DNA of 63,216 nucleotides, counting the filler, from Stramenopiles sp. TOSAG23-6 (lineage: Eukaryota): the NCBI GenBank assembly GCA_900128565.1. It is 16 parts of 16 records of this genome, joined end to end, with 100 filler letters (N's around TTAATTAATTAA, not from the genome) between each part and the next. Parts side by side here need not be neighbours in the genome. Positions count along the whole stretch, not along the records: positions 59,376 to 63,216 come from LT637354.1; 15 more parts are not named here. One strand, 5' to 3'. The position numbers were made by a program, and so were the translations under genes. Below are positions 59,276 to 59,544 of this stretch, piece after piece (position 1 is the first letter of the stretch; each line of letters begins with the position of its first letter). The notes beneath the pieces were generated by a model. That model ran no database searches. It saw only the letters and a program-made list of their open reading frames with translations, and was not told the origin of the DNA.

Positions 59276-59544
59276 NNNNNNNNNNNNNNNNNNNNNNNNN
59301 NNNNNNNNNNNNNNNNNNNTTAATTAATTAANNNNNNNNNNNNNNNNNNNNNNNNNNNNNNNNNNNNNNNNNNNNCGTACGAAATTTTGTACCTAACGAT
59401 TTTTTTTTCAAATATTTTTCCAAAATACATGNNNNNNNNNNNNNNNNNNNNNNNNNNNNNNNNNNNNNNNNNNNNNNNNNNNNNNNNNNNGTACGAAATT
59501 TTGTACCTAACGATTTTTTTTTCAAATATTTTTCCAAAATACAT

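Follow-up and report, generated by a model that had tools for sequence, protein, structure and literature searches.

Few signals in eukaryotic genes are as constant as the AG with which introns end at their 3′ side. Introners are transposon-derived intron families of Micromonas, Aureococcus, Symbiodinium and other organisms, and the available text of the introner survey describes them as GY-AG introns, apart from infrequent GC or GA variants that are confined to the 5′ end (Gozashti et al. 2022, PMC9860276). In Physarum polycephalum, the termini given for non-canonical U12-type introns in the accessible part of bioRxiv 10.1101/2020.10.12.336362 are AT-AG (29%), AT-AA (27%) and GT-AT (17%); the branch motif is matched by a co-evolved snRNA, and the original annotation had discarded introns that are not GY-AG. 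Most introns of Amoebophrya lack GT-AG; in the portion of that report at hand, both of their ends are variable, inverted-repeat hairpins of 8–20 nt join the ends, and U1 was not found (PMC7789003). The intermediate and nonconventional introns of euglenids are described, in the available parts of two reports, as having a conventional-looking 5′ end and a non-AG 3′ end, with a stable secondary structure joining the ends (PMC4770533, PMC3935182).

Here, we analyzed a repeated motif in a 63,216-base stretch of DNA from a marine stramenopile assembly, which is referred to below in its entirety as the window. We consider it probable that this motif is the branch-site box of very abundant and uniform short introns of the spliceosomal type, which have spread in an introner-like manner and mostly run from GT to AT. 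The resemblance to introners lies in the large number of similar short introns that a marine protist carries in unrelated genes, in their being AT-richer than the exons, in possible inverted-repeat termini, and in a possible short direct repeat at the junctions that would restore the mRNA on splicing; unlike the GY-AG introners described in the available text, the introns analyzed here mostly have AT at the 3′ end. No autonomous element was seen for this intron family. Because the introner survey, according to the part of it at hand, relied on annotated introns, it would probably have overlooked a GT-AT family if the single-cell genome carrying it was poorly annotated.

By analogy, and as far as the accessible text goes, Physarum appears to be the closest earlier case of GT-AT and AT-AG ends, of inverted termini with a dinucleotide repeat, of co-evolution between an snRNA and the branch motif, and of an annotation from which such introns were discarded. 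The features in common are a mass gain of introns with long and rigid motifs, non-canonical termini among which are GT-AT and AT-AG, and a branch motif departing from the universal one; inverted termini with a dinucleotide repeat beside them may be another. However, the 5′ site is [G/A]TATC[C/T]TTT and the branch motif lies 10–12 nt from the end in Physarum, compared with GTAYGT and 31–56 nt here, and non-canonical termini make up 0.8% of the Physarum introns, whereas AT ends are the majority here. Amoebophrya, likewise a marine protist, has repeated intron families with direct repeats over the junctions, according to the available text (PMC7789003); in contrast to those introns, the 5′ end is canonical here, the boxes are rigid and a hairpin is not supported. 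The euglenid introns described in the accessible text share the combination of a conventional-looking 5′ end with a non-AG 3′ end, but the introns analyzed here fold no better than their shuffled counterparts.

The TACTAAC box of yeast is likewise a near-invariant branch motif whose core resembles CTAAC and whose distance from the 3′ end stays within a fixed range. The rigid boxes of intron-poor genomes are 6–8 nt long and their introns end in AG, whereas here the near-invariant part measures 13 nt and the common sequence up to 22 nt, one C is added compared with TACTAAC, and the introns mostly end in AT. Judged by their sequence, the 5′ site and CTAAC would group these introns with those of the major spliceosome, from which they differ in mostly lacking the defining 3′ AG. 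A search of the literature on MAST-3 and stramenopile introns, introners and non-AG 3′ sites, supplements aside, returned no description of this intron type, and in the available text of the MAST single-cell genome paper (PMC5778133) introns are mentioned in the methods only, with nothing on unusual ones. If our reading is true, a free-living and ecologically common protist in which most introns end in AT would be a natural experiment on how the site of the second splicing step is located, of heightened interest because of its canonical 5′ end and unusually long branch box, and it would add a non-AG case to the introner account of intron multiplication.

The window consists of about 16 AT-rich eukaryotic contigs of ~3.9 kb each, ordered by falling size, with a GC content of 19–37%. 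The contigs are joined by N, a six-frame stop linker (TTAATTAATTAA) and N, and 15 such linkers are present (at 3924–3935 and 14 further sites). Some contigs are duplicated exactly: 3980–7854 is 100% identical to 7955–11829, and contig 35697–39545 is present in triplicate (range 35697–47443, 100% identical). The genes are eukaryotic and include those for the actin C-terminus, a mitochondrial carrier, RIO2, Rrp6, MCM, an EXS-family protein and protein kinases; TAA is used as a stop codon in the exon of the actin C-terminus. The RIO2 ORF is 100% identical to one Logan protein entry and 91% identical to a EukProt CDS labelled GSMAST32, with the differences being missing segments; read from its label, GSMAST32 would be a MAST-3 marine stramenopile from single-cell genomics, which points to the same kind of source for the window. 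A 972-codon ORF at 35649–38567 (− strand), with two duplicates, has no Pfam match and a strong AT skew, and the triplicated contig that carries it has no canonical box. In the mitochondrial carrier gene, the frame changes within a run of five Ts at about 2285–2300 (− strand), and one extra T would lead to the conserved continuation ...YFFDNF...; the cause is either a genuine frameshift or a mistake made in assembly or amplification.

The first-pass annotation had described, at 59376..59544, an unusually long branch-point module that recurs in almost every intron. At this place, we identified the following features:

59376–59397, + strand: flagged branch box, an exact copy of the 22-mer CGTACGAAATTTTGTACCTAAC, heading a 56-nt block between N runs
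59491–59511, + strand: second copy of this branch box, opening the last contig, with N as its first base
59512–59544, + strand: T-run and 3′ terminal box ending in ...AAATATTTTTCCAAAATACAT, PWM score 17.4

The block at 59376 and the sequence at 59491–59545 are 100% identical over 55 nt and are therefore an assembly or scaffolding duplicate. The last base of this intron is 59544 (...CCAAAATACAT), in agreement with the end given in the first-pass annotation, and the exon starting at 59545 contains an ORF that stays open for 252 codons.

When up to three mismatches were allowed, the 22-mer was found 35 times in the window on both strands, including seven exact matches, versus 0.00 expected from 100 shuffles. 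The core TTTTGTACCTAAC, with at most one mismatch, was found 55 times versus 0.11 expected. Exactly duplicated blocks account for 3 of the 55 core matches and 1 of the 35 22-mer matches. Thus, the near-invariant repeated motif is real. In copies anchored on ACCTAAC (50 distinct contexts), the flank AAATTTTGT is conserved at 90–98% and the T-run farther upstream at 80–90%, and the 5′ half of the box, C[G/A]TA[C/G][G]A, at just 38–85%; 13 nt of the box are near-invariant, and the common sequence extends to 22 nt. Together with its upstream part, the box can be written as TTTTC[G/A]TACGAAATTTTGTACCTAAC. Two boxes in tandem are carried by 7 of the 50 module groups.

The motif is also in the sense orientation, as had been proposed: the flanking ORFs are longer on its own strand in 41 of the 48 module groups. 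The other seven are antisense to, or just outside, the nearest long ORF; these boxes, which may belong to introns in the UTRs of genes that escaped recognition or may be inactive copies, include:

17555–17567, + strand: antisense or outlying box
30874–30940, − strand: antisense or outlying boxes
39379–39395, − strand: antisense or outlying box, with its two duplicates

A CTAAT variant, TTGTACCATTTTTTTGTACCTAAT, occurs twice on the + strand, 88 nt apart (62174–62186 and 62262–62274), between two convergent genes and outside every frame-validated intron. Viewed from the 5′ end, 26 of 38 donor-like sites GTAYGT[TG]T have a box within 260 nt downstream, and several of the other 12 are not introns; a box-less intron is present at about 24835–24646, and a CCCTAAC variant box at 21179. 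The search for GAAATTTTGTACCTAAC in metagenome_contigs gave 64 loci and that for AAATTTTGTACCTAAC in viral_contigs 28 loci, none with an intron context, and these loci were rejected as family members, being chance matches of which several lie within coding sequence.

The flanks of every copy, and an alignment of 16 complete single-box introns, revealed one shared plan with the boxes in the same order. The exon usually ends in (A)T and is followed by the 5′ splice site GTAYGTTTT, a T-run, a weak CAAATTYGA, another T-run and the branch box; behind the latter come [A/G]A, a T or A run, and the terminal box (T)GAAATATTTTTYCAMAATACAT, whose sequence at the 3′ end of the intron is TATTTTTYCAMAATACAT. 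In each intron, four boxes thus follow one another, and the T or A runs between them differ in length. The introns are 72–208 nt long and T-rich throughout, and the 5′ splice site, for which GTAAGT and GTTTGT also occur, is a GT with the U1/U6-complementary form GTRNGT. The distance from CTAAC to the predicted 3′ end is 31–56 nt in the 19 frame-validated introns, with T-runs following the box, and 18 nt in the non-fitting intron at 33294. CTAAC is well placed as the predicted branch-point position: it agrees with the U2-type arrangement, in which a branch motif with a bulged A (CTAAC/YTRAY) is located 18–60 nt from the 3′ end and precedes a pyrimidine-rich stretch. The best-characterized members of the family are listed here:

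1–65, + strand: 3′ part of the last actin intron, with the box at 22–34 and ...ATACAT ending at 65
2011–2099, − strand: 89-nt intron in the mitochondrial carrier gene (2-oxodicarboxylate carrier type), no usable AG
12301–12408, − strand: 108-nt intron GTAAGT...ATAAAT
12541–12625, − strand: 85-nt intron with the fused variant box GTACGAAACCTAAC and the end TTAAT, in frame, no usable AG
12775–12878, − strand: complete 104-nt intron ending in GCAT, in frame, no usable AG
13263–13365, − strand: complete 103-nt intron, representing the family consensus, in a protein kinase gene
13467–13561, − strand: complete 95-nt intron GTACGT...ATACAT in the same kinase gene, no AG anywhere near
32124–32303, + strand: 180-nt intron with two tandem branch boxes in the EXS-family gene, no usable AG
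32361–32495, + strand: 135-nt intron in the EXS gene
32586–32753, + strand: 168-nt intron in the EXS gene with a CTAAG box variant, ending in CCAAAATAAAT, no usable AG
32835–32937, + strand: 103-nt intron in the EXS gene with the end TTTAT
53848–54011, + strand: 164-nt intron behind the RIO2 kinase ORF, carrying two branch boxes, in frame
62365–62510, − strand: 146-nt intron located toward the 3′ end of the MCM gene and carrying two branch boxes

To place the boundaries, a weight matrix trained on the terminal box was used, and its best match behind each last box was taken as the 3′ end; the nearest GTAYGT was taken as the 5′ end, and it was then determined whether the longest flanking open frames join in frame. 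Automatic joining was in frame for 17 of the 21 introns (chance 1/3; P = 1e-5), and the number rose to 19 of the 21 when two introns were corrected manually: in the kinase gene, the true frame ranks second in length, and for the EXS intron at 32586 the acceptor at 32753, which lies outside the scan range, was set by hand (junction ...RRFPH to VFNALKY...). Two to four of the 21 introns are misfits. The intron at 55917 is in frame only with a GT two bases upstream, and the one at 33294 requires one base fewer. As at least one homopolymer frameshift lies inside an exon of the assembly, some frame calls could suffer from errors.

Splicing at the box ends restores the conserved spacing in the kinase, mitochondrial carrier, EXS and MCM genes. 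The kinase junction at 13467..13561 reads ...LHSQG, 1–2 residues and YHFDFKPSN, which is the usual spacing before the catalytic-loop motif. At the carrier junction (2011..2099), the distance from NTPFDV to EG is 39 residues, identical to that in the homolog P0122, and the four EXS junctions preserve the motif order of the family, with EXS motifs present in frame on both sides of the intron at 32124..32303. The MCM exon with TLPVTARQLE must begin right after ...CTATAT, because a stop codon is located just before it. Similarly, the exon starting at 66, which encodes the actin C-terminus, begins directly after ...ATACAT, and the open frames flanking intron 53848..54011 are 433 and 192 codons long.

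The AG expected at the 3′ end had been described as missing, and this was confirmed for most introns: in 11 of the 19 frame-validated introns, no usable in-frame AG was found between 8 nt after the branch box and 45 nt beyond the predicted end, so the 3′ end is mostly AT. Indeed, the predicted ends are AT in 18 of the 21 introns, instead of the 3′ terminal AG of U2-type introns. In the remaining 8 of the 19, some AG is present in frame, 3–42 nt downstream or 30–33 nt upstream, and frame alone is therefore also compatible with its use. The odd ends at 24431 (ACTT) and 19466 (ACAA) have an AG 6 nt and 3 nt further on, respectively. In a minority of introns, AG itself occupies the corresponding position of the terminal box and forms the end, as in CACAATACAG at 25162.

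The frame test sets the boundaries modulo 3. Moreover, as the upstream exon ends in AT at 14 of the 21 introns, a shift of 1–2 nt (TG...CA or AT...AC) would give the same mRNA. The introns with other exon ends (12408, 12625 and 26042) fit the box end solely as GT...AT; for 12301..12408, these are the only fitting boundaries because its upstream exon does not end in AT. In the listed introns, position +4 of the 5′ splice site (T/C) and position −6 of the 3′ box showed no covariation by eye. One intron, 25283..25162 (− strand), starts with ATACGT in place of GTACGT and ends with ACAG, thus being AT...AG, and is in frame with both adjoining exons; its start may be a natural variant or a single-base error.

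The public gene models at these loci are broken because the introns seem to end in AT instead of AG. The carrier CDS P0121 (1834–2863 of the window) has lost the conserved start of the third repeat around the AT-ending intron, and the RIO2 CDS P0002 (52548–53891) has dropped two internal segments and reads into the intron; the database proteins P0001 and P0002 both run straight into intron 53848..54011. A protein search with the RIO2 and carrier ORFs returned an unspliced Logan protein and two mis-modelled EukProt CDSs, none of which spanned a junction. Gene finders demanding GT-AG break these genes, so gene counts and functional conclusions for the lineage may be biased.

We then considered how the family has multiplied. 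That the motif belongs to the conserved body of a recently expanded element had been one of the original suggestions, and it is supported here: whole introns are alike, rather than the motif alone, and thousands of contigs fall on intron parts. For 16 single-module introns from unrelated genes, the pairwise identity is 52–90% (mean 0.73, maximum 0.90), figures that are inflated by low complexity; a subset has a similar total length of 103–114 nt, and the spacer lengths vary widely. When region 11930–15798 was compared with four sequencing runs, the intron bins attracted 11,140 of 119,919 records in X1, 7,987 in X3, 1,388 in X6 and 1,309 in X8, and the exon bins single contigs; the summed depth over bins is not a copy number. 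This shows that the intron sequence is highly repeated in the probable source sample and in the independent seawater metagenome X3. Assemblies break at the introns for this reason. The earlier statement that many contigs end inside these introns holds for a share of them, with 9 of 30 linker-adjacent ends and 14 of 54 block ends located within 80 nt of a module, compared with a baseline of 13.9% of the sequence. Tens of contigs in the DNA runs link an intron 3′ end straight to the 5′ start of an intron, as in joint 12880->13263 and similar ones (26 contigs in X3 and 25 in X1 for one joint), and these are either head-to-tail elements or artefacts of the repeat graph.

The termini carry a possible trace of the mode of spread. 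In the consensus, the terminus ATGTAT, made up of the exon AT and GTAT, is the reverse complement of the other terminus, ATACAT, with no covariation seen. The AT before an intron equals the AT at its end, as would be left by a small DNA element with an AT target duplication. This AT-duplication idea stays a lead, since the exon end and the intron end are both AT in 12 of the 21 introns and shuffled pairs match equally (12.2), and since covariation is absent. We infer that the family most likely spread by copying, as introners do, and that later selection would have held the 13-nt core as the remainder drifted.

A reading that we regard as unlikely, yet as the strongest of the rivals, is that the introns have the same function but another origin, with near-perfect splicing signals kept by strong selection instead of being copies of one element. 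The TACTAAC box of yeast and the rigid branch box of Ostreococcus would be parallels for such a reading. The 13-nt core is kept even where the rest of the intron is quite different (60806, 53972 and 18428), the varying spacers noted above are also in line with it, and no target-site duplication shows, given that exon ends and intron ends match no better within than across introns. However, parts without an obvious splicing role are common as well, namely CAAATTYGA, the CGTACGAAA half of the box and the 103–114 nt subset; in addition, the identity between introns of unrelated genes reaches 0.90 and boxes are duplicated in tandem, all of which argue for copies of one element.

It is very improbable that these are transformed introns of the minor spliceosome (U12-type), massively expanded as in Physarum polycephalum. 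The 5′ splice site, conserved over 9 nt, and the length of the branch box recall the style of U12-type introns, CCTAAC equals the U12 box CCTTAAC minus one T, and the mostly GT-AT termini, with the one AT-AG intron described above, are among those given for Physarum non-canonical U12-type introns, for which inverted termini with a dinucleotide direct repeat are also described in the available text (bioRxiv 10.1101/2020.10.12.336362). However, the 5′ site GTAYGT is the classical U2-type, U6-pairing site and not [G/A]TATCCTT, with GT and not CC at positions +5/+6. The box GTACCTAAC is located 31–56 nt from the 3′ end and not 10–12 nt, and it is not TTCCTT[G/A]AC. Moreover, the introns are T-rich along their whole length, and nearly all introns of the window would need to be of the minor type.

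The first-pass annotation had also pointed to a palindrome and to a stem directly before CCTAAC, and had suggested a structured protein-binding site. A perfect palindrome, TTTCGTACGAAA, does exist, but it is limited to 7 of the 45 extractable copies; CATACGAAA is present in 11 of the 45, and the remaining copies are more variable. Having weighed the reading in which the module is a structured RNA, with a GUACGA/UUGUAC hairpin before CUAAC and a bound protein replacing recognition of AG, we find it hardly credible. The consensus variant can make a 6-bp stem with a 4-nt loop, which appears in the centroid fold of one intron, but about half of the copies break the closing G-C (CATACG) or the C-G (TAG variants) without compensation. 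In an alignment of the 45 copies (30 distinct), 61.6% of the cells of the proposed GTACGAAA/TTTTGTAC stem were paired, compared with 61.3% in shuffles, and a register slid by −2 paired better (71.2%). The covariation score of 0.077 was likewise equal to that of shuffles (0.076). The 3′ arm is invariant, the 5′ arm varies freely, and the G-C and C-G pairs are broken in about two thirds of the distinct rows. Finally, six whole introns folded no better than their shuffles (z from −1.07 to +0.33). The hairpin was rejected on pairing, covariation and whole-intron folding. In our view, the variable 5′ half, CGTACGAAA, resembles a tandem repeat of the box that has decayed, and not a hairpin arm; at 2053, this half reads TTTGTACCAAA directly before TTTTGTACCTAAC, which fits the full tandem duplications of the box elsewhere.

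The metatranscriptome contigs of X6 and X8 on 11930–15798 did not include any across an exon–exon junction; such libraries can contain DNA, and the contigs consequently show neither splicing nor retention. Apart from one exonic 155-nt piece at 14887–15041, they fell on the intron bins. The least probable of all the readings, namely that the elements are excised from the DNA or are never removed (pseudogenes or an assembly artefact), agrees with the lack of an RNA junction and with ATGTAT...ATACAT inverted repeats such as those of DNA elements, but is at odds with a standard 5′ splice site and CTAAC box on the sense strand of the gene, with the interruption of many unrelated conserved genes at frame-restoring positions, and with the presence of the elements in the independent metagenome X3, owing to which they are not the artefact of one assembly.

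Returning to the preferred reading of spliceosomal-type introns, removal would take place at the RNA level by the spliceosome, with the second A of CTAAC as the branch adenosine. The invariant UUUUGUAC beside it most likely extends the contact with the U2 snRNP or with a branch-binding protein, and cleavage would occur 31–56 nt downstream, at the end of the terminal box, where the last two bases are usually AT and sometimes AG. A more specific version, which we offer tentatively and hold to be possible rather than probable, is that the major spliceosome of this lineage has lost its need for the 3′ AG, that the ~15-nt terminal box at a measured distance from the 13-nt branch box sets the cut, that this branch box pairs with a U2 that has co-evolved by one extra G in its branch-binding hexamer (GUAGGUA), and that the intron spread as a small transposon duplicating an AT target, with the element and one AT being spliced out. 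Extended pairing with a variant U2, the third of the original suggestions, may thus apply, through the extra G or through a longer complementarity to UUUUGUACC. An Rfam search of the window gave 0 matches at the gathering score, with no snRNA in the window.

The window also contains a telomere-like 13-mer, AACCCTAACCCTA, with 10 matches versus 0 expected (18898, 24198, 25595, 27475, 27497, 33157, 33761, 54832, 60302 and 60317). Several copies are in frame within exons, where they encode N-P-N-P, and two are located at the start of an intron (60302–60329); this 13-mer may be another small inserted repeat.
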